From positions 1,184-65,183 of the IMG/VR virus record IMGVR_UViG_3300020576_005084: a stretch of 64,000 nt of DNA; one strand, 5' to 3'. This document shows positions 2,603-53,500 of the stretch, piece by piece (the first letter of the stretch is position 1; each line of letters starts with the position of its first letter). The notes beneath the pieces were generated by a model. That model saw only the letters and a list, made by a program, of their open reading frames with translations. It was not told the DNA's origin and searched no databases. The position numbers and the translations under genes were made by a program. Source of the DNA: a virus (taxonomy: Duplodnaviria > Caudoviricetes).

Positions 2603-3580
2603 CTAGCCAGACTTGAACCCTTCGTTGAAGCTCTCGTCGGCAGTTTTGCGTGTGGGTGGGGGATTGCCGTCGCCTTTCGGCTGCACGGCATCTTCAAAGC
2701 GACCGTTACGGGCCGCGGCTTGCTTGGAAGGAGTCTTCGGCGGAACAGGCTTTTTCTCTTTGGCCTTCTCCGCGGCAGCGAATGCCTTGAACTTCTCGAT
2801 CGCACGGCTGACCACAAGTGGCGAGTCCGTGGTGTTGATCTTTTCCTTGTAGTCGTCAGGCTGTTTCGAAAGCCAAACCCGGAAGGGGTTTGCCTTGTCG
2901 ACAACAGTCTTGCCGTCCACAGTGGTGACACCGACATCCTTGCGCCAGTTGGGGTGCTCTTCCTCGAGCAGCTTCAACTCGCGCCGGGCGACGGAATCAT
3001 CGACGATGGCTTGGATGGCTTCGGGCTTGAGAGCCGTGGCCGCCTTGTCATCACCTTCACCTGCAGGCTTCTCGTCGCCAGTGCCCTTCACGCCCGCGAG
3101 AGTTTTCTCGAGGGCAGAACGGACGCGTGCGCCGATCTCAGGATATTCCTCTTCCAGCTCCTTGAACGCGTCGGCGGGGATTTCCACCTTCAGGCCCTTC
3201 GGAGTGGCGTCCTGCAGATTCTTGACGAGCTGCTGGAGATCGCCGGTCTTGCCGAACAGCTTCTCGATGCGTGCTTCCGCGCCCTCTGCTTTGTCGGCAG
3301 CGGCGAGGAGACGATCGAGCTGGCTCTTCGTCAGTTTGACGACTTCTTCGCCTTCTGGCTTGTCTTCACCTTCGGGTTTGTCCTCGCCTTCGGGCTTGTC
3401 TTCGCCTTCGGGTTTGTCTTCGCCTTCCAGATTTTCTTCGCCAGTGCCGAGCAGGTCTTCGTTCTCGTCTTCACCTTCCGGCCGGGTCAGCGCAGGGCCG
3501 CCCTTATTCGGCATGGTGAAGCCTGCCTCGAAATCGCTCTCGGCATTCTCGTCAGTGTACTTGTCACCTTGTCCAGACAT
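2603..3580 (-). CDS. Capsid scaffolding protein
   Basis: 325 aa, acidic N-terminus, helical/coiled body, Lys/Pro-rich C-terminus; lies between portal and MCP. Confidence 0.7.
   Translation of the reverse strand: MSGQGDKYTDENAESDFEAGFTMPNKGGPALTRPEGEDENEDLLGTGEENLEGEDKPEGEDKPEGEDKPEGEDKPEGEEVVKLTKSQLDRLLAAADKAEGAEARIEKLFGKTGDLQQLVKNLQDATPKGLKVEIPADAFKELEEEYPEIGARVRSALEKTLAGVKGTGDEKPAGEGDDKAATALKPEAIQAIVDDSVARRELKLLEEEHPNWRKDVGVTTVDGKTVVDKANPFRVWLSKQPDDYKEKINTTDSPLVVSRAIEKFKAFAAAEKAKEKKPVPPKTPSKQAAARNGRFEDAVQPKGDGNPPPTRKTADESFNEGFKSG
3356..3427 (-). repeat. Four 18-bp tandem repeats encoding (EGEDKP)x4 in the scaffold
   Basis: Units at 3410-3427, 3392-3409, 3374-3391 and 3356-3373, with synonymous variation. 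Confidence 0.95.
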
Positions 3581-3638
3581 TCTTTTCTCCTATTCGGCCC
3601 GCGTTTCCGTGTGCCGCACCTGTGGTAACGTCTATCGA

Positions 3639-3875
3639 CTATTCGTCGATCGGCGTCGGGTCATCACCAAGACCCAGAAGGTACTTGGCGAATTTGATCT
3701 GACCGCGCAGCGCAGCGGTCTGCGCCTCGGTCAATGTCTCGTCATCGTTCTTGATGCGAAGCTGGGCGAGCTTCTTCTCGACCTCTTCGCTGATCTTGGC
3801 CCACAACGGACCTTTGCGCTCTGCTTGGTTCAGCGCGAACGGGAATTCCAGATCGTCGACAACGCCGTTTCTCAT
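3639..3875 (-). CDS. Small conserved protein between portal and scaffold
   Basis: 78 aa; ATGA overlap with the portal stop codon; helical. Confidence 0.7.
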   Translation of the reverse strand: MRNGVVDDLEFPFALNQAERKGPLWAKISEEVEKKLAQLRIKNDDETLTEAQTAALRGQIKFAKYLLGLGDDPTPIDE

Positions 3876-6436
3876 GACGTCACCGTTTCGTCTTCAGCGT
3901 TGGCCATGTCCTCGTTGCTCTGCTGCGACATGGCTTGGCCGTTGGCTGCGCGGCCGGGCAGCTGGGCGATCGGCTTCACGGTAGCGCCCGGCAGTGGCGC
4001 CGGAGCTTCTTCGCCGGTCTCGTCGGCGCCCTTGTTGTGGTGCTTGTGCAGGTCGACACCGTGCGCGGCCGCGGCCAGCTCGCGCTGGGCCTGCAGCGTC
4101 ATGGCGGTCTTGGCCAGCTCGGCCTTCACCTGCGTCAGCGTCAGGCCGTTCTTGTTGGCATACTCCAGCTGCTTGATGGCCAGCTCCTGTTGCATCTCCT
4201 CGCGGCGCAGCTGGATCTCTTCGGCATTCATCTGTTGGTCGATGCCAGCCGAGCCGGTCGCGATCTTCTCGCGCGATGCAGCGAGGATCTGCGCAGCCTG
4301 CACGCGTGGATCCGGGGGCGGCGGCGTGCTGTCGATCTTCTGCTGCTCTTCTTCCGTGTACTGCAGCTTCTTCGGGTCCATGCGACGGGACTTGAGGTAG
4401 TTCTCCATCGTCCGGCGCGGGCTCAGGCCATAGGCAGGATCCTTGGACACCGGCACGAGGGTGGCCAGCGTCTGGTTCTCGATCGCCTGCTCGACCAGCG
4501 CCGAGGATCCGTGGGCGTCGATCTTGAAATCACCCTTCTCCTCGTTCGGTACCTTGGGATCCAACAGCAGCCACTCGTAGAAGTCGGTGACCAGAGGCTC
4601 GTTGACGCAATCGTCGGCGTTGGCGCCGATCGAACGGAGCAGCTGGTTGGCGTTGCTGTCCTGCAGCTGCATGCCGCCGAAGGTGTCAGGCGTGGTCTTG
4701 CCCGACTGGCCCTGCGTCACGAGCGGGATCGACGACACATTTTCGGCTTGCTTCTCGGCGAACTCGATGATCTTGAGCATCTCGTCCGTCATGTTCGGCA
4801 CGTCGAAGGCGTAGAAAGCCTTGCGCACGTCATCACCGGGCGAGTCTGCGGTCTTGTACCAGATCTTGTCGGGCTCGAGGCCCCAGTTGCCGTTGGCCGG
4901 GCGGATGGCGCCCTGATCGATCACGATCTGCGAGCCGGAGCTCTTGCCAGCGTTGTTGAGCATCGCGCGGACGGACGCGTTGAGGATCCGCTGCGGCGCG
5001 CGAACCTGCTCGGCCACACCGACGCCAGCCCAGTAACCGGCGCGGCGCTGCCACGGCAGCACGCGATACGGGAAGTGGCCGGTGTCGAGCGGGTTGAGCA
5101 CAGCGCGCACCACGGTGTCGCCGATCATGGTGGCGATGACGTGCACATGCTTCTTGTCGGCCGGGAGATCGTCGCGCGTCAGCGGCTGGCGGCCGGACAT
5201 CTGGCGGCAGCAATCGATCTCGTCGCGCGAGAGCACGCCGTAGTAGTACCAGATGACGCGGCGACCCTTGCGTTCGTCCTCGTCGCCGTAGCGCGTGTTG
5301 CGCTGGGCGGCGGCGCCGACCGACGGCGAGATCTCCTGCTCGAGCACAAGGTCGATCTGGCTGGTGATGTAACCCGGCAGCTTCTTCAGCGCGCGGACCT
5401 GTGTGTCCGTCATGTAGTCGCGCTCGAACAGATACTCGCCGTTGTGGATGTCGTCGCCGCAGCTGGGATCGGGGAACAGGTTCCAGACGTCGACGTAGCT
5501 GACGCCCGGCTTGATCTCACGCTTGATCTGCACCGTGACGTCGTTGCCCCCTTCCTTGGAGGCATTCGTCATGATGGCTTCGGAGACCTTGGGATGCGGG
5601 CCCTTGAGCACGCCGGATCCCAACCGCGCGGAGTCGGCGATGACCTTACGCATGTTGGTGGAGTATTTGCTCTCCACCATCCAGTCCCAGATGCGCGTCT
5701 CGGCCAGCTTGGCCTTGTCGTGCGCGATCTGGATGTTCTCTTTCGCCAGATCGCCGACGGTCAGCGGCATGCGCGGCGCCGGGGGATTTATGGCAGCGGG
5801 TGATTCTCCGGCAGCACCGGGAGGTTGGACCGCTCCGCCCCCCGGTGCTGCCGTCGGCGCAGGCTGCGGTGCGGGTGTCAGAGACACAGCCGTCGCTGCA
5901 GCACCAGTTGTGGGCGCCGGGGCAGGCGGCATTTCGCCGGGCTGCGCAGGGCGCGTGAGCGGGACGCCTTCGTCGTTGACGACTTGGCTGTTGTCCTTCT
6001 TGGCCTTCGCCAATTCGGGAAGCGGCGTCTCCTTGATGGAGAACGCCTTGTCGCCGGACAGCGGCAGCAGGATCTCGGACAGCTTCGCCGAGCCAGCGTC
6101 GACGTAGCGCGCGGTCAGGCGAAGGAAGACGGTCGACTTGTGATCGGGCTTGCCTTTGATGGTGCTGCCCGCCTGCACGGGGCCATTCATGGCCTGCGGC
6201 TTGGACCACTTGCCGCTGCCGCCGAACTCGGTGCGGTTGGCGTCGTCGATGCCGATGTACGCGTCTTCGCACTCGGCCCAGATGTTCTCGATGCCCGAGG
6301 AGGTTCGGGCAGCCATGGCGGCATTCCGCTTGGTAGTCAGAGCAACGCTGATGGCCGCCAAGGTGCCCGGCTCCGGGTCCAAGTACGGCCTGATCAGCTC
6401 TGCTACTTCAGCAGGAATGCCGTCTAGGTAGTTCAT
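3872..6436 (-). CDS. Portal protein (P22-like podovirus type), long
   Basis: 854 aa with portal-type motifs (NLFPDP, F..DY.T, FPY...PW......WG.GVAE..R.PQ..LN...R..L.N). Pro/Ala-rich insertion at about aa 160-225 and a coiled C-terminal extension. Confidence 0.85.
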   Translation of the reverse strand: MNYLDGIPAEVAELIRPYLDPEPGTLAAISVALTTKRNAAMAARTSSGIENIWAECEDAYIGIDDANRTEFGGSGKWSKPQAMNGPVQAGSTIKGKPDHKSTVFLRLTARYVDAGSAKLSEILLPLSGDKAFSIKETPLPELAKAKKDNSQVVNDEGVPLTRPAQPGEMPPAPAPTTGAAATAVSLTPAPQPAPTAAPGGGAVQPPGAAGESPAAINPPAPRMPLTVGDLAKENIQIAHDKAKLAETRIWDWMVESKYSTNMRKVIADSARLGSGVLKGPHPKVSEAIMTNASKEGGNDVTVQIKREIKPGVSYVDVWNLFPDPSCGDDIHNGEYLFERDYMTDTQVRALKKLPGYITSQIDLVLEQEISPSVGAAAQRNTRYGDEDERKGRRVIWYYYGVLSRDEIDCCRQMSGRQPLTRDDLPADKKHVHVIATMIGDTVVRAVLNPLDTGHFPYRVLPWQRRAGYWAGVGVAEQVRAPQRILNASVRAMLNNAGKSSGSQIVIDQGAIRPANGNWGLEPDKIWYKTADSPGDDVRKAFYAFDVPNMTDEMLKIIEFAEKQAENVSSIPLVTQGQSGKTTPDTFGGMQLQDSNANQLLRSIGANADDCVNEPLVTDFYEWLLLDPKVPNEEKGDFKIDAHGSSALVEQAIENQTLATLVPVSKDPAYGLSPRRTMENYLKSRRMDPKKLQYTEEEQQKIDSTPPPPDPRVQAAQILAASREKIATGSAGIDQQMNAEEIQLRREEMQQELAIKQLEYANKNGLTLTQVKAELAKTAMTLQAQRELAAAAHGVDLHKHHNKGADETGEEAPAPLPGATVKPIAQLPGRAANGQAMSQQSNEDMANAEDETVTS

Positions 6437-11002: not shown

Positions 11003-11434
11003 TCAGGTCTCCGTCACGGTCAATGCGCTGGCGGCGAACTGCGGCTGGATGCCGTTGCTGACGACCAGTGAGGCCGACAACGCGCCGGAGTAGAGCAGGT
11101 TACCCGCGCCTGAAGACGCAGTGCCGATGCCAACGTGTGTCAGCGTTGCGCCGGATGCGCCGCACTGGGCGAACTGGGCCAGCGCAGCATTCGACGTCAC
11201 GCCGCCGGACGGAACCGCCCAACCAGACGTCGTTCGAACGATTGGGATGCGGGCATAGTTGGTGTAGGCGGTCTCGTTGGTGGACTGGCTCGCCCCAGCC
11301 GGGCTCGCGGTGTGCAAGCTGAGATAAAGGTCTGTTAGCGGCGCTGACGCGGCGTTGTCCGCGATGTTCGCGATCGCGGTGGCGTTGAAGATCAAGGCCA
11401 GCACTTGGTTGTCGAAAGTCGTGCCTTTTGGCAT
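11003..11434 (-). CDS. Phage virion protein ('LYLSLHTA.P' family)
   Basis: Start MPKGTTF at 11434; 143 aa. The motif LYLSLHTASP...ETAYTNYAR recurs in phage tail/head accessory proteins. Confidence 0.65.
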   Translation of the reverse strand: MPKGTTFDNQVLALIFNATAIANIADNAASAPLTDLYLSLHTASPAGASQSTNETAYTNYARIPIVRTTSGWAVPSGGVTSNAALAQFAQCGASGATLTHVGIGTASSGAGNLLYSGALSASLVVSNGIQPQFAASALTVTET

Positions 11435-16571: not shown

Positions 16572-17384
16572 TCAGCCCAGCAGGTCGCTGTTGTCGGGCG
16601 GGGGATCTGCAGCCAGCATCTCGATATCCTCCTGCCTTGCGCTGCTCTTGTACGCCGCCTCATCTTTTTTCAAAGCCTCGTACCGTTCTATAACTTCTGA
16701 GAGAGAAATGTTCGGGCGTGTTTTTCTCAGAAGCAAGCCATAATCTTTAAGCGGGCCTGATCGCAAACCATCAAGAGATTCAGCGATTTCGTTTTTATTT
16801 TTAGACGTGTGCTTTGCCGCCCGTGATTTATTTTCAGCACCAAAAACCCTTGGAGCATTTTCCCACTCCACCGGATCGGGCCAGTCGTGTGTTTCGAGCT
16901 GACCCAACTTTCCCCTGTGGGTCTCGCATGTGCGCGTCATGCCTGTGACCGAGCGCACAAACATGGTGCTGTTGTGCTCGAACAAAACGCCACACACCTT
17001 GCAAGGCGACGACCACACATATCGGCTGCTCTTGCCTTCCCGAGACACCCCCTCGAGCCGAAAGCGTTGACCATCAGGGGTTGTGAATACTTGACCGGGC
17101 AAAAGTTTTTTATCCTCGCCCCGCTGGGCTGTTTCTTCAAAAGCAATCATCATGTGTCGAAGAGATTTTGCAGCGCCGCGCCGGGGCCTCTCAATCGGGT
17201 CATTTTCACGCGCCTGCTCATACACAATGCTGGCTTCACCTGCTGTGAGAAAAGAACCCAGATATCTTTTCTCGCCACGCACCGTGATGGCTGCAGTAAA
17301 TCGATCGATGCGCCTGTCGTAGGTCACACCAACATAGGCCGCAGCTTCTGCGCGTTTCCGCTCGAGTGTTTCGTTGTCTATCAT
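16572..17384 (-). CDS. AP2-domain DNA-binding protein with a putative Zn-binding domain
   Basis: N-terminal 'YVGVTYDRRIDRFTAAITVRGEKRYLGSFLTAGEASIVYEQA' matches AP2; internal CxxC...CxxH; lower GC than the flanks. Confidence 0.7.
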   Translation of the reverse strand: MIDNETLERKRAEAAAYVGVTYDRRIDRFTAAITVRGEKRYLGSFLTAGEASIVYEQARENDPIERPRRGAAKSLRHMMIAFEETAQRGEDKKLLPGQVFTTPDGQRFRLEGVSREGKSSRYVWSSPCKVCGVLFEHNSTMFVRSVTGMTRTCETHRGKLGQLETHDWPDPVEWENAPRVFGAENKSRAAKHTSKNKNEIAESLDGLRSGPLKDYGLLLRKTRPNISLSEVIERYEALKKDEAAYKSSARQEDIEMLAADPPPDNSDLLG

Positions 17385-17689
17385 CAGTGGCAAATCCTTT
17401 TCTTCGGATCTTTCATGTAATAAAAATCGAGCCGCATCTCAGCGTAGCCAAGATCTGTTTCGCCCCAGAGCCAGTCGACATCGAGCAGCGCCTCATAGAT
17501 GGCCGAGGGGCGGGCCCCTTCTTCCATCATGCAATCGATCACGGCATCCTTGGCATTAAGATATTCGCCATGATGTTCCACGTCGGTCAGCGGAGACTCT
17601 GGTATGTCATAGCCCCCTAATGCTTCGAACTCGGCCTGTTGTTCGAGGGTGAGCTGTTCTCTTTCGGCCTGTCTCTTTTTCGATAGCAT
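17384..17689 (-). CDS. Hypothetical protein
   Basis: First gene of the leftward arm; RBS-like GGAG upstream; TGATG overlap with the next gene. Confidence 0.6.
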   Translation of the reverse strand: MLSKKRQAEREQLTLEQQAEFEALGGYDIPESPLTDVEHHGEYLNAKDAVIDCMMEEGARPSAIYEALLDVDWLWGETDLGYAEMRLDFYYMKDPKKRICH

Positions 17690-17735
17690 CACCGGCTCCA
17701 CAACGAATCACTTTCACACTCCAAACCTATATTGT

Positions 17736-17880
17736 ACTCAGCACTGCTGCAAACCATACGCCTCTCCGCTGCGTGGGGTAGACCTAAAGGTCTATACCCC
17801 CATACACAGCAGAGCGGGGTGGAAGAGTAATATTGGGTGCAGAGTAATGAGTGCTGAGTTGATGAGTAGCTTAGAGTATA
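17736..17880. other. Nested imperfect palindrome plus GAGTA repeats at the transcriptional divergence point (candidate origin or packaging site)
   Basis: TGGGGTAGACC-TAAA-GGTCTATACCCCA (17774-17801); outer arms ACTCAGCACT (17736) and AGTGCTGAGT (17850); four [A/T]GAGTA copies at 17824, 17841, 17863 and 17873. Confidence 0.5.
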
Positions 17881-18051
17881 GCTTTACTAAAAGAGCGCAT
17901 TGCTGAAACAACATAAAAACCGTGTTGCCTGCCGCCCGTCTAAGCATGCCGCGCGGCTCGGCCGCCTACCACGACACCGGCCGCCCGAGGCCAGCACCGG
18001 GCCCCGGGCCAGACAGGCAAAAACCCAGCTTTTCGGCCAAAAACAACCCCA

Positions 18052-18081
18052 TTGTATTTCGTAACGATATGCGCATATCAT
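18052..18081 (+). promoter_or_regulatory. Sigma70-type early promoter overlapping the palindromic operator GATATGCGCATATC
   Basis: TTGTAT-N18-TATCAT; perfect 14-bp palindrome at 18066-18079. Confidence 0.65.
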
Positions 18082-18127
18082 GTCCTGCAACCTGTGAGTT
18101 GCAGCAACCAAAGCAAGGACCGACAAG

Positions 18128-18436
18128 ATGAACACTGCAAAGATCGCCAACAACAGCAACGAGCACCCCATCGACCGCCTCGGCGCCGTGCTCGCCCAGA
18201 TCAAGGATCTGGAAGGCATCGCCAACCCGCTGAAGGAAGAGGTCAAGGCCATGGGCCCCGGCCAGCACGACGGCAACCTGTTCATGGCCACCGTCTCCGA
18301 CGTCGACGAGAGCGAGAGCTACGATAGCAAGGACATGGAGAAGAAGCTCCGCGAGATGGGCGTCACTGACAGCTGGTTCCGTCACCACAAGAAGGTCAAG
18401 GCCGGGTACCGCAAGGTGCTGGTCAAATCGCGATAG
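18128..18436 (+). CDS. Early hypothetical protein
   Basis: 102 aa; first rightward gene; its stop codon overlaps the 5' strand of hammerhead 1. Confidence 0.75.
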   Translation: MNTAKIANNSNEHPIDRLGAVLAQIKDLEGIANPLKEEVKAMGPGQHDGNLFMATVSDVDESESYDSKDMEKKLREMGVTDSWFRHHKKVKAGYRKVLVKSR

Positions 18437-18493
18437 GTCGAAACGCCGGGTGGAGGCCCGGCGTATGCCAGTGATGCTGGCACTGACGAGACC
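18436..18493 (+). ncRNA. Hammerhead ribozyme 1, type II (open stem II)
   Basis: GGUC-GAAA-C-GCCGGG-(UGGAGG)-CCCGGC-G-U-A^UGCCAG-(UGAUG)-CUGGCA-CUGACGA-GACC. Complete core (CUGANGA, GAAA, GUA), perfect stems I and III, 4-bp stem II. Predicted cleavage after 18465. Confidence 0.93.
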
Positions 18494-18512
18494 AACCAAG
18501 AAGGAATGACAC

Positions 18513-18866
18513 ATGAAAGTTCGCGACTACTTCGCCGGTATGGCCATGCAGGCCTACATCATAGCTGCGGCGCAGAAGGCCCCGGCAATTACAAACGAAA
18601 ACGAAGAAAGCATAACCGCCGACAACTACGCCCTTGCAGACAGCGCGTACAACATGGCGGCGGCAATGATGCAGTACCGCGAGGACAATCTCGAGGCAGG
18701 GAAAAACTGGTCGCTGACGGTCGAACCAACAAGCGGCGACGATTTTATCGTGCGTGGGGTTACCAACATGGCCATCTACGACATCGGCGAGCGCATCGAG
18801 CGCGGCGTCATAGCTCTTCTGTGTGAAGATGAAGACTGCGAGGTGATTTTCATTTCCACACCGTAA
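18513..18866 (+). CDS. Hypothetical protein of the widespread phage 'RDYFA...AM' family, bracketed by two ribozymes
   Basis: MKVRDYFAGMAMQA...AY.MAAAMM.YR motif plus an acidic C-terminal domain; RBS AAGAAGGA. Confidence 0.75.
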   Translation: MKVRDYFAGMAMQAYIIAAAQKAPAITNENEESITADNYALADSAYNMAAAMMQYREDNLEAGKNWSLTVEPTSGDDFIVRGVTNMAIYDIGERIERGVIALLCEDEDCEVIFISTP

Positions 18867-18868
18867 CA

Positions 18869-18928
18869 GGTCGAAACGACGCCCTGCCCCGGCGCCGTCT
18901 GCCAGTGATGCTGGCACTGATGATGACC
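18869..18928 (+). ncRNA. Hammerhead ribozyme 2, type II, with an extra U between A9 and stem II
   Basis: GGUC-GAAA-C-GACGCC-(CUGCCCC)-GGCGCC-G-U-C^UGCCAG-(UGAUG)-CUGGCA-CUGAUGA-U-GACC. Stem I identical to copy 1; stem III has one A-C mismatch. Predicted cleavage after 18899. Confidence 0.88.
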
Positions 18929-18949
18929 AACCAAGAAGGACAGACCCTG

Positions 18950-19198
18950 ATGACGAAACCCACGCTGGTCCCTGCACCCAAGACTTGGCAGGAGAAGGCC
19001 ACCCTGCTGCAGAACAAAACACTGGAAGCGCTGCACGCTTGGAGCAACGCGCTGGTCGACTACCAGACAACCCCCGGCATGCTGTCGATGAACACCATGG
19101 ACCGCATGGAGACACGCATCGGTCACCTGTGGGCGCAGTACAAGGCCGCTGCGAAAGCGCGCGACACCTTCTTCGACAACCAGACAGGGAAGGCCTGA
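18950..19198 (+). CDS. Hypothetical protein
   Basis: MTKPTLV..., 82 aa; RBS AAGAAGGA immediately after hammerhead 2. Confidence 0.7.
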   Translation: MTKPTLVPAPKTWQEKATLLQNKTLEALHAWSNALVDYQTTPGMLSMNTMDRMETRIGHLWAQYKAAAKARDTFFDNQTGKA

Positions 19199-19201
19199 GC
19201 C

Positions 19202-19558
19202 GTGACCAAGATCGGCGACAAGCTCTGGCGCTACAATCGCGATGCGGACAACCGCATGGGCCGCGATGGCAAGATGATGGATCCGTGGACCGACAGCTAC
19301 AAGATCACGGGCGAGAGCAAGACGCACTGGCTCGTATCGCTGGGACACTACAACGCTAAGGTCAACAAGAAGACGCTGCAGGAGAGCACGCGATCGGGCT
19401 GGGGCAACATACAGTGGTACACCGAGGCGGGCATGACCGAACGCAAGTGGCGCGAAACGCACGCCAAGAAGATTGCTGGCCTCGTTACCGGCCAAGCCAC
19501 CGTCGACCAGTTGAAACAGATCGCCAAGATTGTTGGCTACAAGGAGACCGACCAGTGA
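19202..19558 (+). CDS. Hypothetical protein (beta-barrel-like)
   Basis: 118 aa; GTG start; normal codon usage. Confidence 0.7.
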   Translation: MTKIGDKLWRYNRDADNRMGRDGKMMDPWTDSYKITGESKTHWLVSLGHYNAKVNKKTLQESTRSGWGNIQWYTEAGMTERKWRETHAKKIAGLVTGQATVDQLKQIAKIVGYKETDQ

Positions 19559-19848
19559 GCAACACCGAGAACACCATTATATTCGACGAAGATAGCCTGA
19601 AGAACACGGCCGAGGCGTTGATCGTCGTCAACCCCCGAGGACACAGCGTGTCCGAGGGCATCTACCAGTACATGAAGAACACCGCGCTGCGGCAGCTCGA
19701 CAAAACACCCGACTATGTCGGCTACCTGAGCACGGCCGGGTTCGAGCTTTGCTTCTGGCGCGACGATGACGGCCACATGAACGTGCGCGCGTCCGTCATG
19801 GCCTACACCGTCGTTCGCTTTCTCAAGGAAAAAGGACTGAGCAAATGA
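19555..19848 (+). CDS. Hypothetical protein
   Basis: GTG start overlapping the upstream stop (GTGA); RBS AAGGAG; 97 aa. Confidence 0.65.
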   Translation: MSNTENTIIFDEDSLKNTAEALIVVNPRGHSVSEGIYQYMKNTALRQLDKTPDYVGYLSTAGFELCFWRDDDGHMNVRASVMAYTVVRFLKEKGLSK

Positions 19849-20030
19849 AACAGGAACTGAAAGACAAGATCCTCGCCGTCACGAAGAACAGCAAGTTTGG
19901 TTCGATCCTGCGCTGCGCGCTGAACGTCGAGCGCGATGCGCTGCCGCGCTTCACCGGCAAGGCGATCGTGACCAGCGATGGGTTCGTCATGGCTACCTTC
20001 ATAAGTTCTGACGGCGATCTGGGCGATTAA
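19845..20030 (+). CDS. Hypothetical protein
   Basis: 61 aa; ATGA overlap; RBS AAAGGA. Confidence 0.55.
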   Translation: MKQELKDKILAVTKNSKFGSILRCALNVERDALPRFTGKAIVTSDGFVMATFISSDGDLGD

Positions 20031-20072
20031 AAACAAAAAATCTTGGACCCACATCACAAAGGAAAGCACCTG

Positions 20073-20801
20073 ATGTCTGATACCTCTGATATGTTCCGCC
20101 GCTTCCAGCGGCATCCTGAAGCCCTCGAGCAGGCCGACACGGTCGAGAAGTTCGTCGAGCTGGTCTATGCGGGCCCGGCCAAGGGCCACGCCGATGCCGG
20201 TGTGATCGAGATGTTCGTCAAGCCGTCGAACGCGTGGACCCGCTACGTCTTCCGCACGCTGAAGGCCCACGGCATCGACACGGCGCCGTCCCGGCCGCTG
20301 TATGTGCCCGAGGCGAAGAAGCTGACCGACATTGTCTGGGATGTCCGCTTCCTGCCATGCCCCGAGGGTGGCCAGACGCGCGAGCAGAACCTGCAGCAGG
20401 TGGGCCACAGGCTCTTCCTGAGCGGCCTGCGCAGCAAGGGTGACATCCCGTTCGGCACCATGGGCGGCACGCGCAGCTGGTCTCCCGGCTGGCTCAAGCG
20501 CGGCGAGAAGATCCGCCAGCACAATGGCGGCAAGACCTACGGCTGCTATGCCCGGCCGCAGACCGCTGTGCTGGAAGCGTGGCGCAGCATTGTCGGCGGC
20601 GTGATCGACGCGCTGGAGTTCGTGCGCTGGGACGACGGCCGCACGCTGGTGCTGGCGCGCGGCGAGAAGACGTTCGAGCTCTGGCTGGCGCTGCTGGATC
20701 CCGGCGCGTGTGGTGCTGCCACCCTCATGCCGTTCGAAGACCAGCAGCTGATCGCCGACAACAAGGCCGCTGCGATCGCGGCGTGGGGAGACGACGCATG
20801 A
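20073..20801 (+). CDS. Hypothetical protein
   Basis: Start MSDTSD after RBS AAAGGA; 242 aa; strong codon bias. Confidence 0.75.
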   Translation: MSDTSDMFRRFQRHPEALEQADTVEKFVELVYAGPAKGHADAGVIEMFVKPSNAWTRYVFRTLKAHGIDTAPSRPLYVPEAKKLTDIVWDVRFLPCPEGGQTREQNLQQVGHRLFLSGLRSKGDIPFGTMGGTRSWSPGWLKRGEKIRQHNGGKTYGCYARPQTAVLEAWRSIVGGVIDALEFVRWDDGRTLVLARGEKTFELWLALLDPGACGAATLMPFEDQQLIADNKAAAIAAWGDDA

Positions 20802-20905
20802 GCTGGGAGATCGTCAAGACCCTGATCATCGTCTTCGTGCTGATCGCGATCGGCACGGCGATACCCTACGCCACCCAGTTCGGCATCCGTCTGGTGGTGC
20901 CATGA
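20798..20905 (+). CDS. Small membrane protein (35 aa)
   Basis: MSWEIVKTLIIVFVLIAIGTAIPYATQFGIRLVVP; ATGA overlaps on both sides. Confidence 0.55.
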   Translation: MSWEIVKTLIIVFVLIAIGTAIPYATQFGIRLVVP

Positions 20906-21282
20906 GCCAGCCCAAGACCGAGGTGTATTTCCTCGCCCAGATCCGCGGGAGCAACGGCATAGAGTGGGGCGCGTGGCGCGACATCACCGAGGATCCTGAC
21001 TGGGTGCACAACACGCTGGACGAGGCGCTGGTGCATCTGGAGTGCTACCTGCACTTCACCAAGCATGGTGTGTATCCGGCCGCGTACATGGAGATCCTGC
21101 ACAATAAGGGCAGCCTGCTGGCCATGCTAAACTACGAGAGCGCGAAGATGCAGCGGGAGCACATCATCAAGAACAAGGAGTTCGGCACCAAGACCCAGCT
21201 GCGCATCGTCAAGCGCACACTGGTGATCACCGACGAGGTGGTCGAGGTGCCCGCGACCGTCAGCTACGGAGAAGAGAAGTGA
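20902..21282 (+). CDS. Hypothetical protein
   Basis: 126 aa, coupled to its neighbours. Confidence 0.7.
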   Translation: MSQPKTEVYFLAQIRGSNGIEWGAWRDITEDPDWVHNTLDEALVHLECYLHFTKHGVYPAAYMEILHNKGSLLAMLNYESAKMQREHIIKNKEFGTKTQLRIVKRTLVITDEVVEVPATVSYGEEK

Positions 21283-21692
21283 GTATCGATTGCCCCTACT
21301 GCGGCAAACCCGCCGAGTTCGTCAGCGGCCCCGAGATCTATCCGCACCGCGGCGATCTTGCGTCGAAGCAATACTGGCTGTGCCGGAAGTGCGATGCGTA
21401 TGTTGGGTGCCACCAGAACACGACGACGCCCCTCGGGCGCCTTGCAGATCCGAAGTTGCGCAAGGCCAAGATCGCTGCGCATGCCGCGTTCGATCCCATC
21501 TGGCGAAGCGCGCACGAGAGCAGGCGGCCGAAGGCCCGGCGCGATGCGTACAAGTGGCTGGCCGAAGCTCTGGGCATGCGCCCGGCCGACACGCACATCG
21601 GCATGTTCGACGAGAAGATGTGCATGCGCGTGGTGACGCTGTGCAAGGAGTACGCAGTGAAGAAGCTCGCTGCAGAGATGATGGAGAAGTGA
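21279..21692 (+). CDS. DUF3268-family zinc-finger protein
   Basis: 'CPYCG...YWLC..CDAYVGCH...PLGRLAD..LR..K..AH.AFDPIW...R..AY.WLAE.LG.....THIGMFD...C', the DUF3268 signature. Confidence 0.85.
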   Translation: MSIDCPYCGKPAEFVSGPEIYPHRGDLASKQYWLCRKCDAYVGCHQNTTTPLGRLADPKLRKAKIAAHAAFDPIWRSAHESRRPKARRDAYKWLAEALGMRPADTHIGMFDEKMCMRVVTLCKEYAVKKLAAEMMEK

Positions 21693-47563: not shown

Positions 47564-50500
47564 CTACACCTTGCAAATAAGAGACGCGATGAAATCGTTC
47601 CAGTTGGCCTTCTTGGTCGACTTGGCTGTCGCCCGCGACACACGAAGACCACGCTCTACCGTTTCATTGATCTTGGCCTCCGGGTCAATGCCACGGGCTT
47701 TACCACGGGCTTCGCGGGCCAGACGGATCTGCCGCATGGCCTCGGCCGGGGTATCCTTGAGCCGGTTACGCCACGCGGCCGTCTGCTGGCCTTGGGTGGT
47801 GGCGAGCTCGGATATGGGCGACCGGCTCAGGCGTTCTTGCAGCGCGTAGTCGTTATTGGCGATGGCGGCTTTTTCCAGCTCGATGAACACGAACTGGGGG
47901 TGGACACCCGTCAGCGATTTTGCCTCGAGCATGGCGATTGCCAGTGCCCGCTCAGGATCCTCGGCCACCAGACGTGCGGCGCGATCCAGTTGGGGCTTCT
48001 CCTCCCCGACATCATAGGCTTCGCCGTTTATCGCACGGAAACGGGTCTCACCAGTGCCGTCGATCGGCTGCTGCGCCCGGCGACGGGGCGCGCGATCGGG
48101 GATCGGGGGCAGATCCACAACCGTAGTGCTCGAGGGGCCTGCGTTGTTGCCAAACATGGCGGCGTAAGTGGGATCCTGCCGGATCATCTTCTCACGCAGC
48201 GAAGACGGCACGCGCGGAGAGAAGGACGCGCTTTCTACCGTCTGGAATTTTGACGGGTCGAACGGGCCCCACTTCGCAGCGTTGGGACCGAGCACTTCAC
48301 CCTGCCCATCGGCGAACTGGCTGATAGCGTCCTGCTTCAGCCGTTCGCTGACCGCGTTGGCCTCCTCGGCCGTCAGCGGACGATCGAGCTGCATGGCGAC
48401 TGCGGGCGCACCGGACTTGCCGTAAATGCGACGGGCACGCTCTGCAATGACGCGGGCGCCGGTATCCTCGACAACGGCGCGGGCCTCGTCGACGGTGAAA
48501 GACTGGCCACCGTCCAGACGATCGAGGCGCAGGTTGATGGTCGCGCCTTCCGGCGCGGCGGGATGCAGATAGTCCAGAAGGCGCTCCTGCGCCTCGGCGG
48601 CTTCGTCCCACGAGGGGTACACCGGGGCGCGCTGCAGCTCGGCCGACATCTCCTTGGGGTCGAGCACCATGAGCACAACGTCCGGCTTGCCGCCGTTGAA
48701 CTTCTTGTACAGATCCTTGTCCCAGCCTTCAGGCGCATACTCGTCGTTCCACGACGTGCGTGCGGCCTCGACGAAGCCGAAGCGGTGATAGAACTTCGGA
48801 AGGATGGTGTCGAAGGCGTCAAGCTTCACACCACCAGCGGCGACGGCGACTTCCATCATCGCGCTGCCGCTCTTGTCGGTGGAGAACACCGACACAATGT
48901 CGCCGTCAGGCTTCACCGCCACGCCGCTCTTGCCGTTGTCGGCGAGCATCAGGCGGAAGTTCTTGTAGTCCTCGACCGGGTACACGGCGACGGCCGCGCC
49001 GAAGCGGTTGGCGCTCTTCGCAGCGGTGATCAGGTCGGCGAAGCGGCGGGCGTTGGAATCCGTCTGCTCGAGCTCGAGCACGCGGGCGGGAATGTTGACG
49101 CCTGCAGCGGTGTAGCTTTCACGCAGATCCTTGCCAGCGTTCCACTCCGCGGCATAGGTGACACCGAGCGACTTTAGAAGCCGCCCGCGGCCGCCATCTC
49201 TTCCGCCTCCTCGCGTGTAAGACCGGGATGATCCCGCATCGCCTGCGCGATCGGATCGGAGCTGTCGAGTTGTGTCGAGCCTTGGAGAGAACTGAGCGGC
49301 AGCATACGGCTGGGCGTCTGCCCCGGCTCCGAGGGGTCCACCGGCAAAGTCTTCACCCGGGACAGGCCCCGGAAGAGCTCCCTCTCGGTTTCTGTCGGCG
49401 AAGCGCCGGGCGACGTCGTCGAGACGTGCGCGGTTGACTTCAGGTCTTTCATACCAAGCCTCGTTGCCGCTTGCGGTGACCTTGAATTTCGAGGGCACTA
49501 CGCCGTTGGCGGGTTTTTTGATCTCTTCCAGAAACGCACGGAAGGCCGGGACGCTGAATTCGTAGCGCCCGCCCGAGGGGGTGTCATAGCGGAAAAAGGG
49601 CCGGTTGTCATCATCCCGGCCGTACCGGGCGCCATACTCGTAGGCCCCGTATTCACCCTGTTTTGCGGTCACGTCGGCGATCGCCGACCGGTTGGACTTG
49701 GAGATCAGGGCATCGTCCAGAATGGCCCCCAGCGTGCCGTGGGAGGCTTCCTGCTGGGAGTAGGCGACCCAGCTCTCCCAGTGGTAGCGCCCCACGGAGG
49801 CGTCCTGCGGGCGCCCAGCGGCGGCGTAAATGGACCCGATCTTGGCCTGCAGGCCCCGCTCGATCGCCTCGTAAGCCAGCAGGCCGCGGACGCCGTAGGT
49901 CAGGTTGGCCAGCGGGGTGCCGGTGATCACCTTGCCCTCGGCGTCCTTCTGGCCGTCGTAGATGTTGGTGTCCTTGAACCGGCCGTCGTCCCACAGCTGG
50001 CGCGTCTGGACGCGGTCGATGACCATGACGTCGCTGTGACCGGCAACCAGCAGGGTGAAGGAGACCACCTTGTTGTCGATGCCGACGCCTTCGCCGAACT
50101 TCATGAACTCGCGGCGGATCTGCTGGCCGGTCATGTTCGGATCGCTGAACATCTCGTGCAGGTGCTGCATCCGGGTTTTGCCGGTCTCATCCTTCAGCGC
50201 CATGTTCACGAGGAAGTTGTTGCCGAACGCGTTGAGATTGTGCGTGGCACCGGCACCGGGCTGGCCCGAGCCCTTGGGCGCCACAGAGCGGGCCCACGCC
50301 TCGTACTCGGGCATGTCGTCCTTGGTGAAGTTGCCGTCGGCCGCGCGTTGGATCCACGGCGCGGCGCCATCAAAGGCGTCGATGAAGAGGCTTTCCTGAA
50401 CATATGGTGACACGCCACGCGAGAGGAACGACCAGAGGAAAAGCTTGCCGGTTGTGACCGGCGTCAGCTGGCCGCTTTCATAGGCGGCACGGAATTTCGC

Positions 50501-53500
50501 GGCCTGCTCAAAACCGTGGGTCGCATCTTCAATCTGGCCCGCGGACAGGGCAGACACCTTGTTGGTGGCCTCCGCGCTGTTGAGATCGCGGATGAAGGCA
50601 TACGGCGGGATCGGCACGTCGCTGCCCCCAAGGGCATACGCCATCATCTCCGACCACGCCTCCGGGGACTTGGTCGGGTTCTTGAACTTCGACAGGACGT
50701 CGTCGAGATTTTCGAGCTGCTTGCCAGCGTTGCCATTGGTGGTCGTCTGGGTCAGCAGCGTCTGCGGCTCGCCCTTGTTGTTGAGCGCGAACTTCGGCGG
50801 ATTGAGAACGCGGACACGCAGCGACGGTGCGAAGCCGTGCACGTTCTTGTCGGCGACATCCTTGCCGGGCTTGGAGATCTTGATCTTGGGGCTGAACTTC
50901 GGCTGGCCACGCATGACTTCAGCGCGCATTTGCGGCGTGATGTCGAGCGAGTGGACGGGTGTGTTGCCTGTGTTTTTCGCCTTGTTTTCAGGATCGTTGA
51001 TGTATTCCTGTGTCAGAACACGGCGCTCGGCCTGCGATGTGTTGTTCCACGTCTCGTCCGACATGTCGTGGTATTGCGCGACATCTTCGGGTTGAGCTGC
51101 GGCATCGCGCAAGGTCGTGCCCGCTGTCGGCACCACGCCGTCTTCGACCTTGGCGGCCCACTTCTTGACGTACTTGTCGACAAACGCGGGCAGGATCTTG
51201 TCGTAGAACCCGCGCATGCCGGAGCCGCCGACCTTCAGGCCGTCGCCATCGACGCGACCTTCGCTCTTTTTCGACTGCACGATCCCGTCGGCGATGTCCT
51301 TGCCGACAACGTCAGGGATCTCTTCTGCCGGAATCGTCTTTCCGTAAATCACGTCACCGTCGTGATCGTAGACATCGAGATGATACTTGCCGGTCGCGGT
51401 CTTGTACCAGTCAATGTATTCAACCTTCTGGCTCAGGTCATAGCGATCGGCGTTGGTGTCGCCGGTATCCCACGTCACACGGTCATAGCCGTTCTCGACG
51501 GCATAGCGCAGGGCCCGCTTGAAGGCGAGCTCGTGCCATGTGGTCTTGAACGGGGCGTCTGGCACGGCGCTGCGGGCCTTGCGCAAGGCTTCGACAGCGT
51601 CGTTGTGCTTCTTGATAGCCGCCAGCATCTCAGGATCGCTGTCGATCGCGTTTACGCGACTGAGAGCCTCCATGGCTTCAGGGCTGGCGTCGTCATAGAT
51701 TTCACGTTTGCTGGTGTACTTGCCGCCCGTTGCTTCGGCGAACTTCTTCTCGCGCAAAGCATACATCTCGTCGGTGGCTTTTTTGCTGGCTTCAACCAGC
51801 GCAGGCACCTTGGAAGCATCGCCGTATCCGTTCTTGCGGCCGATCTGGTGCCAGTCGCTCTGGATCTCGGCGATGTGCAGGATCTTCTCGCCGTTCGGCC
51901 CGGTGCGGGTATCGAAACGGATGTGGGCAAGGACATTGGATTCGGCCCAATGCTTTCCTTTGAAATTTCCAGCAGCAGATCCGATCGGAGAATTCTTCGC
52001 TGCGCGGGCAATAGCATCCTGCGCGGTGCGTGCGGATTCCCGCGGCACACCAAGAATCCAACGCTTGTTTGCATCGCGCACTTCCCAAATCGGGCCACTG
52101 GCAGGATCGCCTTCAGCCTCTTTCGCTGTCCACCCTGTGGTGTCGCGGGGAATCGCAGGAAGCGTGAGCAGGAGCTCGTGGTAGTCCTTGCCGCCGGGCA
52201 GCGAGTATTCGGCGAACTTCGTCGGGTTGTCGCTGTTCGCAATGCGCTCCAGCTCGACCATGCGATCGTAAGCCGCCTGCGGCATGTCTTCCATTTGCGC
52301 GCGGTACTGCGCGCGGAGTTCGTCGTATTCCGCCTCTTCCGCAGGGCCGATGACGCCGCCCTTCATCACTTCTTCGATCTTTACCGAGCCGACTTCCAGC
52401 TGCTCGAGCACCTCGGCCTTGGTCACCGGGCGCGTCTGGGCACCCAGCCACTTGTCGATGCCAGTGGTCTTGATCTCCTCGGCCTTGATGCCGGGCATGT
52501 TCTTGATGGTCGCCAGCCACTGGCCGGGAGGTGCCTTGTCGAACTTCACGCTGTCGACGGCACGCTCCAGCGCAGAGAAGAACACCGGGCCTTTCTCTTC
52601 GACCTTGGGGCTGAACTGCGGCTTGCCGCCAGTATCCTGCGCCATCTGGTTGGCGACAAAACGGTCGGCGTCGGTCGGGTTGCCGGTCTCGGCTTCGCGC
52701 GGCGTGGGCTTGCCGATCCGCACAGGCTCGCCGGAGGCGGGCTTCTTGGCGGCGGGCTCTTCGGTCTTTTCCTTCGTGACCTCGGCAGCCTTGGCCATGC
52801 GCGCATGTGCTTCGACCATCTTGGCCCGCACAACGGCCATGTCCTCGTTGTCGGTCTTGGGGTTGACCCGGTCCTCGATCGCGGCGCGAATCTTCGCGAG
52901 ACGATCCCGAGCGGCCTTGGTCAGGTACTTCTCACCGCCGCGCACCTTGGCGACGATCGCCTTCTCTTCGGCGCGCAGGTGGGCGACTTGGGGGCTCTTC
53001 TCCGCATCGCTGCGGCGTTTGGTGTCCAGCTCGCCCAGCCAGCGCTTGTAGACCTCGGCCTGCTGCTTGGCCTCGGCATAGCCTTCGCGCGGCTTGGGGC
53101 CAGCGCGTGTGGGGTTGGCCTCCTTGCCGACCATCGCCTCGGTGACGACGTTCTCGGCGGTCGGCGCCTTGTCGGACAGGCCTTCCGTCTCGCCGATCTT
53201 GGCGGCGTGCATCTTCGCGATGGTGTCGTGGATCTGGTCGAGGTTGGTCACCCACTTGTCGGTCTCGAACATGCGGGCAGGCTTGAAGAACTTCTGCAGC
53301 GTGTTGAAGCTCTCGCGCAGGCTGGTCATCAGCTTGCCCAGAACGTCGGTGGCGACGTTCTTGCCGTAGCGTTCCTCGACGGCACCAATGACCTTCTCGA
53401 CGAAGCCGGTGAACCGCGGCGCATCGCCGATCATGTCCTTGCCAAGCTCGTTGTACAGGTGGTCCAGCACGGCGTCAGCATGCGCGGCCTGCCCTTCCGG

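Follow-up and report, generated by a model that had tools for sequence, protein, structure and literature searches.

What does a phage gain by placing a pair of hammerhead ribozymes around a single gene? The question is raised by a locus in a tailed phage (Caudoviricetes) known from IMG/VR virus record IMGVR_UViG_3300020576_005084. The window, as we call the whole stretch of DNA analysed here, is 64,000 nucleotides (nt) long and covers positions 1,184 to 65,183 of that record; in it, two type II hammerheads, HH-A and HH-B, lie on either side of ORF2, a small open reading frame (ORF) of an early operon. A first-pass annotation of this DNA had proposed that the RNA released between the two cuts may be closed into a natural circular messenger RNA (mRNA). 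The analysis reported here favours another answer, to which we assign a probability of about 0.75: both ribozymes would cut the early polycistronic transcript into linear, hairpin-ended single-gene messages, and the product of the bracketed gene would most likely be a linear monocistronic mRNA of 434 nt.

Two hammerheads around one early gene

HH-A and HH-B are complete type II hammerheads in the plus-strand sequence (Table 1), with predicted cuts between A18465 and U18466 and between C18899 and U18900, respectively, which is where the first-pass annotation had placed them. HH-A reads, in order, GGUC, GAAA, the stem III hairpin of 8 base pairs (bp), GUA, the stem I hairpin, CUGACGA and GACC; its stem I has 6 bp (UGCCAG/CUGGCA) and the loop UGAUG. 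The order in HH-B is GGUC, GAAA, stem III, GUC, the stem I hairpin, CUGAUGA, an extra U and GACC. Stem I, loop included, and stem II are identical in the two copies, which are near-identical over one stretch of 31 nt and another of 21 nt (each 90% identical), whereas stem III of HH-B differs from that of HH-A and contains one A.C mismatch. The extra U of HH-B, at 18924, to which the first-pass annotation makes no reference, lies between A9 and G10.1, and the remaining core positions are intact. Both copies carry the elements of the catalytic core, namely CUGANGA, GAAA, a UH cleavage dinucleotide and the A15.1-U16.1 pair.

Table 1. Coordinates of the ribozymes, the released RNA and the flanking genes in the window (SD, Shine-Dalgarno sequence; aa, amino acids)
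Feature	Position	Strand	Remarks
ORF1, 102 aa, first cistron of the rightward early operon	18128..18436	+	58%-identical homologue in L057
HH-A, type II hammerhead	18436-18493	+	seen in the sequence; Rfam Hammerhead_II, composite pattern, relatives' covariance model
HH-A stem II	18436-39 with 18490-93		
HH-A stem III	18443-18464		
HH-A stem I	18466-18482		
RNA released by both predicted cuts, 434 nt	18466..18899	+	
SD AAGGAA of ORF2	18500..18505	+	7 nt before ATG
ORF2, 117 aa, bracketed gene	18513..18866	+	orphan as a whole protein
HH-B, type II hammerhead	18869-18928	+	seen in the sequence; Rfam Hammerhead_II, composite pattern, relatives' covariance model
HH-B stem II	18869-72 with 18925-28		
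HH-B stem III	18876-18898		
HH-B stem I	18900-18916		
ORF3, 82 aa, next cistron	18950..19198	+	SD AAGGA at 18934-18938

A composite hammerhead pattern matched the window twice and 100 shuffled versions of it not at all, so a chance origin of the two motifs is excluded. Against the Rfam model Hammerhead_II (RF02276), HH-A scored 31.7 bits and HH-B 26.6 bits (E values of 2e-4 and 5e-3 for the local region), and a permissive Rfam scan of the window revealed no further ribozyme class. In fold predictions, minimal constructs of both adopt the expected three-helix junction, in which loops close stems I and III and stem II is left open; the pair probabilities are 0.75-1.0 for HH-A and 0.36-1.0 for HH-B.

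The two copies also belong to a family. An exact-pattern scan of IMG/VR identified 11, and later 52, phage contigs with the same hammerhead subclass, and a covariance model made from 12 of those relatives' contigs (R1) gave HH-A 70 bits and HH-B 62.9 bits and detected 84 hammerheads in 53 sources, all phage contigs. One relative, L003, exceeds the Rfam threshold with 39.7 bits. In the alignment of relatives (A2), standard pairs occupy 95.9% of the cells, compared to 24-58% when the pairing partners are slid, a comparison in which stem I was fixed by the search pattern; stem I sequences of other kinds were seen in further sets, obtained by methods that favour pairing. Six pairs, located in stems II and III, are changed on both sides, and the covariation score was reached by none of 500 shuffles. 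Judged by their sequences, HH-A and HH-B are genuine hammerheads for which self-cleavage is predicted.

The interval between the cuts holds one ribosome-binding site (RBS) and a single credible ORF, as the first-pass annotation had recognised. At both sites the stop codon of the upstream gene adjoins or overlaps the first bases of the ribozyme (the TAG of ORF1, at 18434-18436, overlaps the first base of stem II of HH-A), and an SD and an ATG follow within about 20 nt of its end. The 21-nt tail that holds the SD is itself repeated after HH-A and after HH-B.

Predicted cutting between the stop codon and the next ribosome-binding site

This placement is the usual one in the subclass. A broader IMG/VR scan together with a structural scanner gave 164 sources (163 IMG/VR loci, referred to by L numbers, and the window); among the matches listed, to which all counts for the subclass given below are limited, there are at least 284 type II hammerheads, spread over 151 of the 164 sources and 99 lineage clusters. 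In the 227 distinct copies with enough flanking sequence, the upstream ORF ends between -12 and +4 nt of the ribozyme in 78%, a start codon lies no more than 45 nt downstream in 94% (median 19 nt), and an SD-like motif is present in 169. Paired hammerheads around single ORFs, which the first-pass annotation had suggested looking for in related phages, proved to be common: same-strand arrays of two to nine copies are frequent, with 120 neighbour pairs comparable to HH-A/HH-B from 49 phage lineages among the matches listed, and their median spacing of 462 nt indicates that a single-gene cassette of about 434 nt is typical. The layout of the window is thus ordinary for the subclass. The longest arrays that we noted have nine copies each in L059, L064 and L111 and eight in L142, all on the same strand, 250-900 nt apart and punctuating small early genes.

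How could such a pair act on the transcript? The ribozymes occupy the intercistronic spacers after genes one and two, and each would fold locally during transcription and cut itself, which would put ORF1, ORF2 and the downstream genes on different RNA molecules. Each downstream piece would begin with a 5'-OH directly in the 6-bp stem I hairpin and carry its own SD and ATG about 20 nt further on, while each upstream piece would have at its end the GC-rich stem III hairpin, followed by two nt and a 2',3'-cyclic phosphate. From what is established on mRNA decay in bacteria, ends of this kind should withstand both the 5'-end-dependent entry of RNase E or J and 3' exonucleases. Neighbouring cistrons would probably become independent of each other in stability and translation, and every message would have defined, nuclease-resistant 5' and 3' ends. 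A comparable principle is used in insulators of the RiboJ type, synthetic devices in which a self-cleaving ribozyme upstream of an RBS generates a message with a defined 5'-OH and a hairpin at its start.

Natural precedents point in the same direction. Perreault et al. (2011, PMC3088659) described multiple hammerheads bordering individual genes or small groups of genes in prophages, and these clustered ribozymes cut themselves in vitro and in E. coli. The present locus resembles those clusters in having type II hammerheads in same-strand tandem within a phage operon and changing cargo genes, for which processing to single-gene length was proposed; here, too, at least two same-strand hammerheads lie in intergenic spacers of a phage operon and flank a single gene. 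Hammerhead-punctuated phage operons have therefore been known since 2011, and the case described here is one more clean example. It differs from the 2011 prophages in its carrier, an uncultured 65-kilobase (kb) podovirus-like phage with terminal repeats, and in the ribozyme subclass, which has a stem II of 4 bp and a loop I of 5 nt, scores below the Rfam threshold and lacks the consensus pseudoknot, cleavage being predicted. In Desulfovibrio vulgaris, a type II pair about 313 nt apart (loc 2/loc 3) also lies beside small phage-like genes, and cyPhyRNA-seq recovered from it, in vivo, linear ends with a cyclic phosphate and with a 5'-OH (Olzog et al. 2021, PMC8782182); that pair is chromosomal, comes from another host and belongs to another sequence subclass. 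A further parallel is offered by the ribozymes in 5' untranslated regions of RNA viruses, where a viral ORF is immediately preceded by a hammerhead, in some cases by tandem pairs around a few hundred nt, and cutting has been tied to the initiation of translation (Lopez-Galiano et al. 2026, PMC13725137), although these RNA viruses are eukaryotic and translate independently of a cap, whereas the window belongs to a double-stranded DNA (dsDNA) phage with SD-led ORFs.

The ORF2 coding sequence provides evidence from the locus itself. When HH-B was folded after the native ORF2, with the 3' half of HH-A removed, its own stem II formed with a pair probability (P) of 0.78; synonymous permutations of ORF2 gave a mean of 0.05, and none of 150 reached the native value. 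The order of the ORF2 codons thus keeps the 5' strand of HH-B unpaired, which is the state that self-cleavage needs. In these fold models this is a sign that the ORF2 coding sequence may be constrained by the ribozyme downstream of it. For HH-A, the structure of minimum energy predicted in 18100-18495 is the correct fold. As a separate matter, we observed that in equilibrium folds of 18466-18930 the identical stem I hairpins (18466-18482 and 18900-18916) exchange arms in a long-range duplex that leaves the local hairpin a P of 0.004; this swap is probably irrelevant kinetically, and it is possible that tandem copies can fall into a misfolding trap of this kind.

Several points weigh against processing into linear messages. 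The HH-A fold is not significantly better than that obtained with permuted ORF1, since 15% of the permutations reach its value, and the 4-bp stem II is improbable in long thermodynamic contexts (P 0.01-0.04), these being equilibrium predictions that ignore tertiary contacts, co-transcriptional folding and ribosomes. Both ribozymes fall under the Rfam gathering score of 37 bits, at which the whole window gives no match. Pseudoknots between loop I and the 3' tail are common among hammerheads, being found in about 40% of them, and the loop I of HH-A and HH-B (UGAUG, 5 nt) has no complement in the tail AACCAAGAAGGA with which to form one; loop I varies freely among the relatives and the tail shows no matching changes. 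The low Rfam scores of the subclass are probably due to this absence together with the short loop I, and in many type II hammerheads the pseudoknot accelerates the reaction (PMC3088659). A 2019 review left the function of bacterial and phage hammerheads formally open, favouring the processing of polycistronic transcripts (PMC6765202). Finally, cutting at either site in the phage is predicted from the sequence, and the protection of the ends and the regulatory benefit, be it for stability or for translation, are what we infer.

The same points bear on the question of whether the motifs still work. One or both could be inactive relics in a transcript that stays polycistronic, with HH-B, on account of its inserted U and the A.C mismatch in stem III, as the likelier candidate; the Rfam scores and the missing pseudoknot of both copies would fit, and Perreault et al. 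listed inactive hammerhead-like RNAs with core changes (PMC3088659). We nevertheless consider this very improbable. All the other core positions of HH-B are intact, its fold is preserved by the order of the ORF2 codons, and the extra-U core (CUGAUGA-U-G) recurs with compensated stems in four hammerheads of two other phages (L056:10118-10180 and 11070-11132; L030:5958-6020 and 6233-6295), making a total of five hammerheads in three phages. Moreover, an extra nucleotide at the same position, an A, is tolerated in the natural viroid hammerhead CChMVd with only a moderate loss of rate (PMC1636495). The cleavage triplets of the two copies are both natural ones, the GUA of HH-A being somewhat slower (PMC1636495) and found in 14 of the 284 hammerheads of the subclass among the matches listed.

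Junction rebuilding and the proposed circular message

Excision by both cuts would leave the 434-nt RNA with its 5' end paired in the stem I hairpin and its 3' end formed by the stem III hairpin plus UC; by analogy with hammerhead chemistry, these ends would be a 5'-OH and a 2',3'-cyclic phosphate that could in principle be rejoined. The circular proposal builds on this. Once the RNA is excised, HH-A's 3' half would pair with HH-B's 5' half through stem II, and reverse hammerhead chemistry or a host RtcB-type ligase would join the ends into an exonuclease-resistant circular ORF2 message. The first-pass annotation was correct that joining the ends rebuilds a hammerhead with a canonical core: because the copies share identical stems I and II, the rebuilt ribozyme has the fully canonical core of HH-A. 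Such rebuilding, however, is open to any tandem pair of hammerheads whose stems II match. Since the cleavage products of a type II hammerhead are held only by stem II, the junction requires the 3' strand of the upstream copy to pair with the 5' strand of the downstream one, and in the window the two are compatible, both stems being GGUC/GACC.

Folding of the excised 434-nt RNA gave the chimeric stem II a P of 0.71, a value that no more than one dinucleotide shuffle in 100 and one synonymous permutation in 100 attained. We have dropped this fold as support for a circle, since HH-B on its own reaches 0.78 in the native ORF2 context: a free GGUC pairs with whichever GACC is offered, and the value cannot separate a circle from cutting. 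A 4-bp helix alone would, besides, have to hold together the ends of a 434-nt RNA. In Tornado circular-RNA systems, paired twister ribozymes leave ends that RtcB can join, and the ends are brought together by a designed pairing stem. Tornado is synthetic, and its end-pairing stem is much longer than the 4-bp stem II of the window.

If circles were the product under selection in at least part of the family, neighbouring ribozymes should be able to rebuild the junction. Junction compatibility, defined as four of four pairs in the chimeric stem II, was found in 62.5% of the 120 neighbour pairs, compared to 26% between lineages, and when stems I and III of the neighbours had fully diverged the figures were 72% and 25%, which means that the matching of stem II within genomes is real and more than a trait of the subclass. 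A sample of two pairs had pointed the other way, to neighbours being junction-incompatible; the larger sample reversed this to an enrichment, and the control for direction described below indicates that nothing about this excess is particular to the junction. The 62.5% also falls far under the 96% at which the ribozymes, among the matches listed, are compatible with themselves, and there are conserved arrays that are unable to rebuild the junction, such as the L013 group with 2 of 4 pairs, L036 with 1 of 4, and L067/L123 with mixed stems.

The control for direction makes use of the fact that only the forward combination of strands serves a circle, while the reverse one, in which the upstream 5' strand meets the downstream 3' strand, would be useless to it. 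Among the 64 listed neighbour pairs whose stems II are not identical, 11 are compatible in the forward direction only and 11 in the reverse direction only; for cassettes shorter than 700 nt the counts are 9 forward and 6 reverse. This symmetry argues for common descent, slow compensatory change or recombination rather than selection on the junction, and no selection specific to a circle junction was found. On these grounds we rate as decidedly unlikely both the closure of the ORF2 message into a circle and the related idea that a circular, translatable ORF2 mRNA exists and that the partial stem II matching in arrays is its footprint for a subset of the cassettes.

Other observations add to this. 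No member of the RtcB or Rnl2-type RNA ligase families is encoded by the phage. With a length of 434 nt, which is not a multiple of three, and an in-frame stop, a circle would give no endless or otherwise special translation. An exact search of metagenome contigs for the back-joined junction does not separate a circle from a linear product, since neither it nor the control search for native HH-A produced a match. Although the first-pass annotation was not aware of a description of such an mRNA for a dsDNA phage, Perreault et al. had already raised it for prophage hammerhead clusters: circular or spliced products of comparable clusters were suggested explicitly and sought, and neither could be detected (PMC3088659). 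Circles have been demonstrated in retrozymes and viroid-like circular RNAs, where a unit cut out by tandem hammerheads can form a hammerhead again from its ends and be joined by a cellular ligase (de la Pena and colleagues, PMC7229834, PMC7761336). Those hammerheads are of type I or III and belong to non-coding eukaryotic retroelements or replicons, while the window has type II ribozymes around a bacterial-style ORF with an SD.

Possible cassette exchange, phage context and meaning

The direction symmetry of stem II is also what would be expected if the ribozymes had a role at the DNA level, one that is compatible with RNA cutting. The hammerheads would then serve as short homology linkers by which early-gene cassettes are gained, lost or swapped through recombination, and the sameness of stem II would keep the recombinant ribozymes functional. 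The near-identical 31-nt and 21-nt stretches shared by HH-A and HH-B are in line with this proposal, as is the comparison with L057, whose ORF1 homologue is followed directly by a homologue of the window ORF at 19845-20030; both hammerheads and the whole block 18437-19844 are missing, indicating that the ribozyme-containing block is accessory. In L036 (5431-5514 and 6442-6503), homology to L026 and L035 breaks at or beside the hammerheads, one of which, 84 nt long, stands as an island of 97.6% identity while the flanks on both sides are unrelated, and these breaks suggest that ribozymes may mark or mediate the exchange of cassettes. We found, on the other hand, no close relative of the window phage that would reveal the gain or loss of a cassette bounded by HH-A and HH-B; conserved islands at mosaic joints may merely be the most constrained sequence, and the slow compensatory evolution of an open 4-bp helix could explain the coherence of stem II by itself. 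A linker role is therefore, in our view, unlikely.

Two sets of observations stand beside this. Neighbouring hammerheads have an identical 4-bp stem II in 47% of cases compared to 12% between lineages, even where stems I and III have fully diverged (as in L038, L054, L023/L028 and L111, among the matches listed), and descent, slow compensatory change and recombination are candidate causes of this sameness. In L057, the region 3480-4277, compared with window positions 18128-20030, lacks the 1.4-kb ORF2-ORF5 block and has a 108-nt spacer joining ORF1 to the next homologue, which is 123 aa long in L057 and only 61 aa in the window.

Returning to the cutting of the operon transcript into linear messages, its cargo has few recognisable relatives. 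The first-pass annotation assigned ORF2 to an 'RDYFA' family; residues 1-60, with the motif RDYFAGMAMQA, do match phrog_2201 (E value of 2e-6) and small phage ORFs, which lends that label some weak support, but the whole protein is an orphan by sequence comparison. Word-based and exhaustive protein searches with the entire ORF2 recovered the protein itself plus weak matches to long repetitive proteins, and a protein atlas yielded only sub-threshold leads to viral hypothetical proteins of 60-78 aa. The only relatives found for ORF2 are two N-terminal matches, both without hammerheads. In L014 (2817-3974), a 75-aa ORF with the N-terminal RDYFAGMAMQA motif is directly upstream of a 283-aa ORF, and there is no hammerhead nearby. 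For ORF4, no relatives were found.

The source record has 65,183 bp with direct terminal repeats and an estimated completeness of 100%, so the window is nearly all of it; a blastn comparison to the INPHARED phages identified no relative of the window. Genes up to about 17,700 run leftward and include those for the terminase and an SU10-type portal (3872-6436), while those from 18,128 to about 43,800 run rightward and include a primase-helicase, a family A DNA polymerase and an SNF2 helicase, so that HH-A and HH-B follow genes one and two, respectively, of this rightward early/replication operon. A sigma-70 promoter scan of 17300-21500 gave no candidate, and the cassette has no terminator-like site on the plus strand. 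The minus strand carries, at 47564-55462, a 2,632-aa ORF without a Pfam match; together with the SU10-type portal it suggests a podovirus-like phage with a putative giant internal or ejected protein.

What the phage gains from cutting is narrowed by results at the level of the family, next to which the single case matters little. Should circles be found after all, a dsDNA phage would for the first time be seen to make natural circular mRNAs; neighbours do match in stem II, but symmetrically with regard to direction, which argues against a circular mRNA as the selected product. The ribozymes almost always follow a stop codon and precede the next RBS, and the coding sequence upstream of them can be tuned for ribozyme folding.

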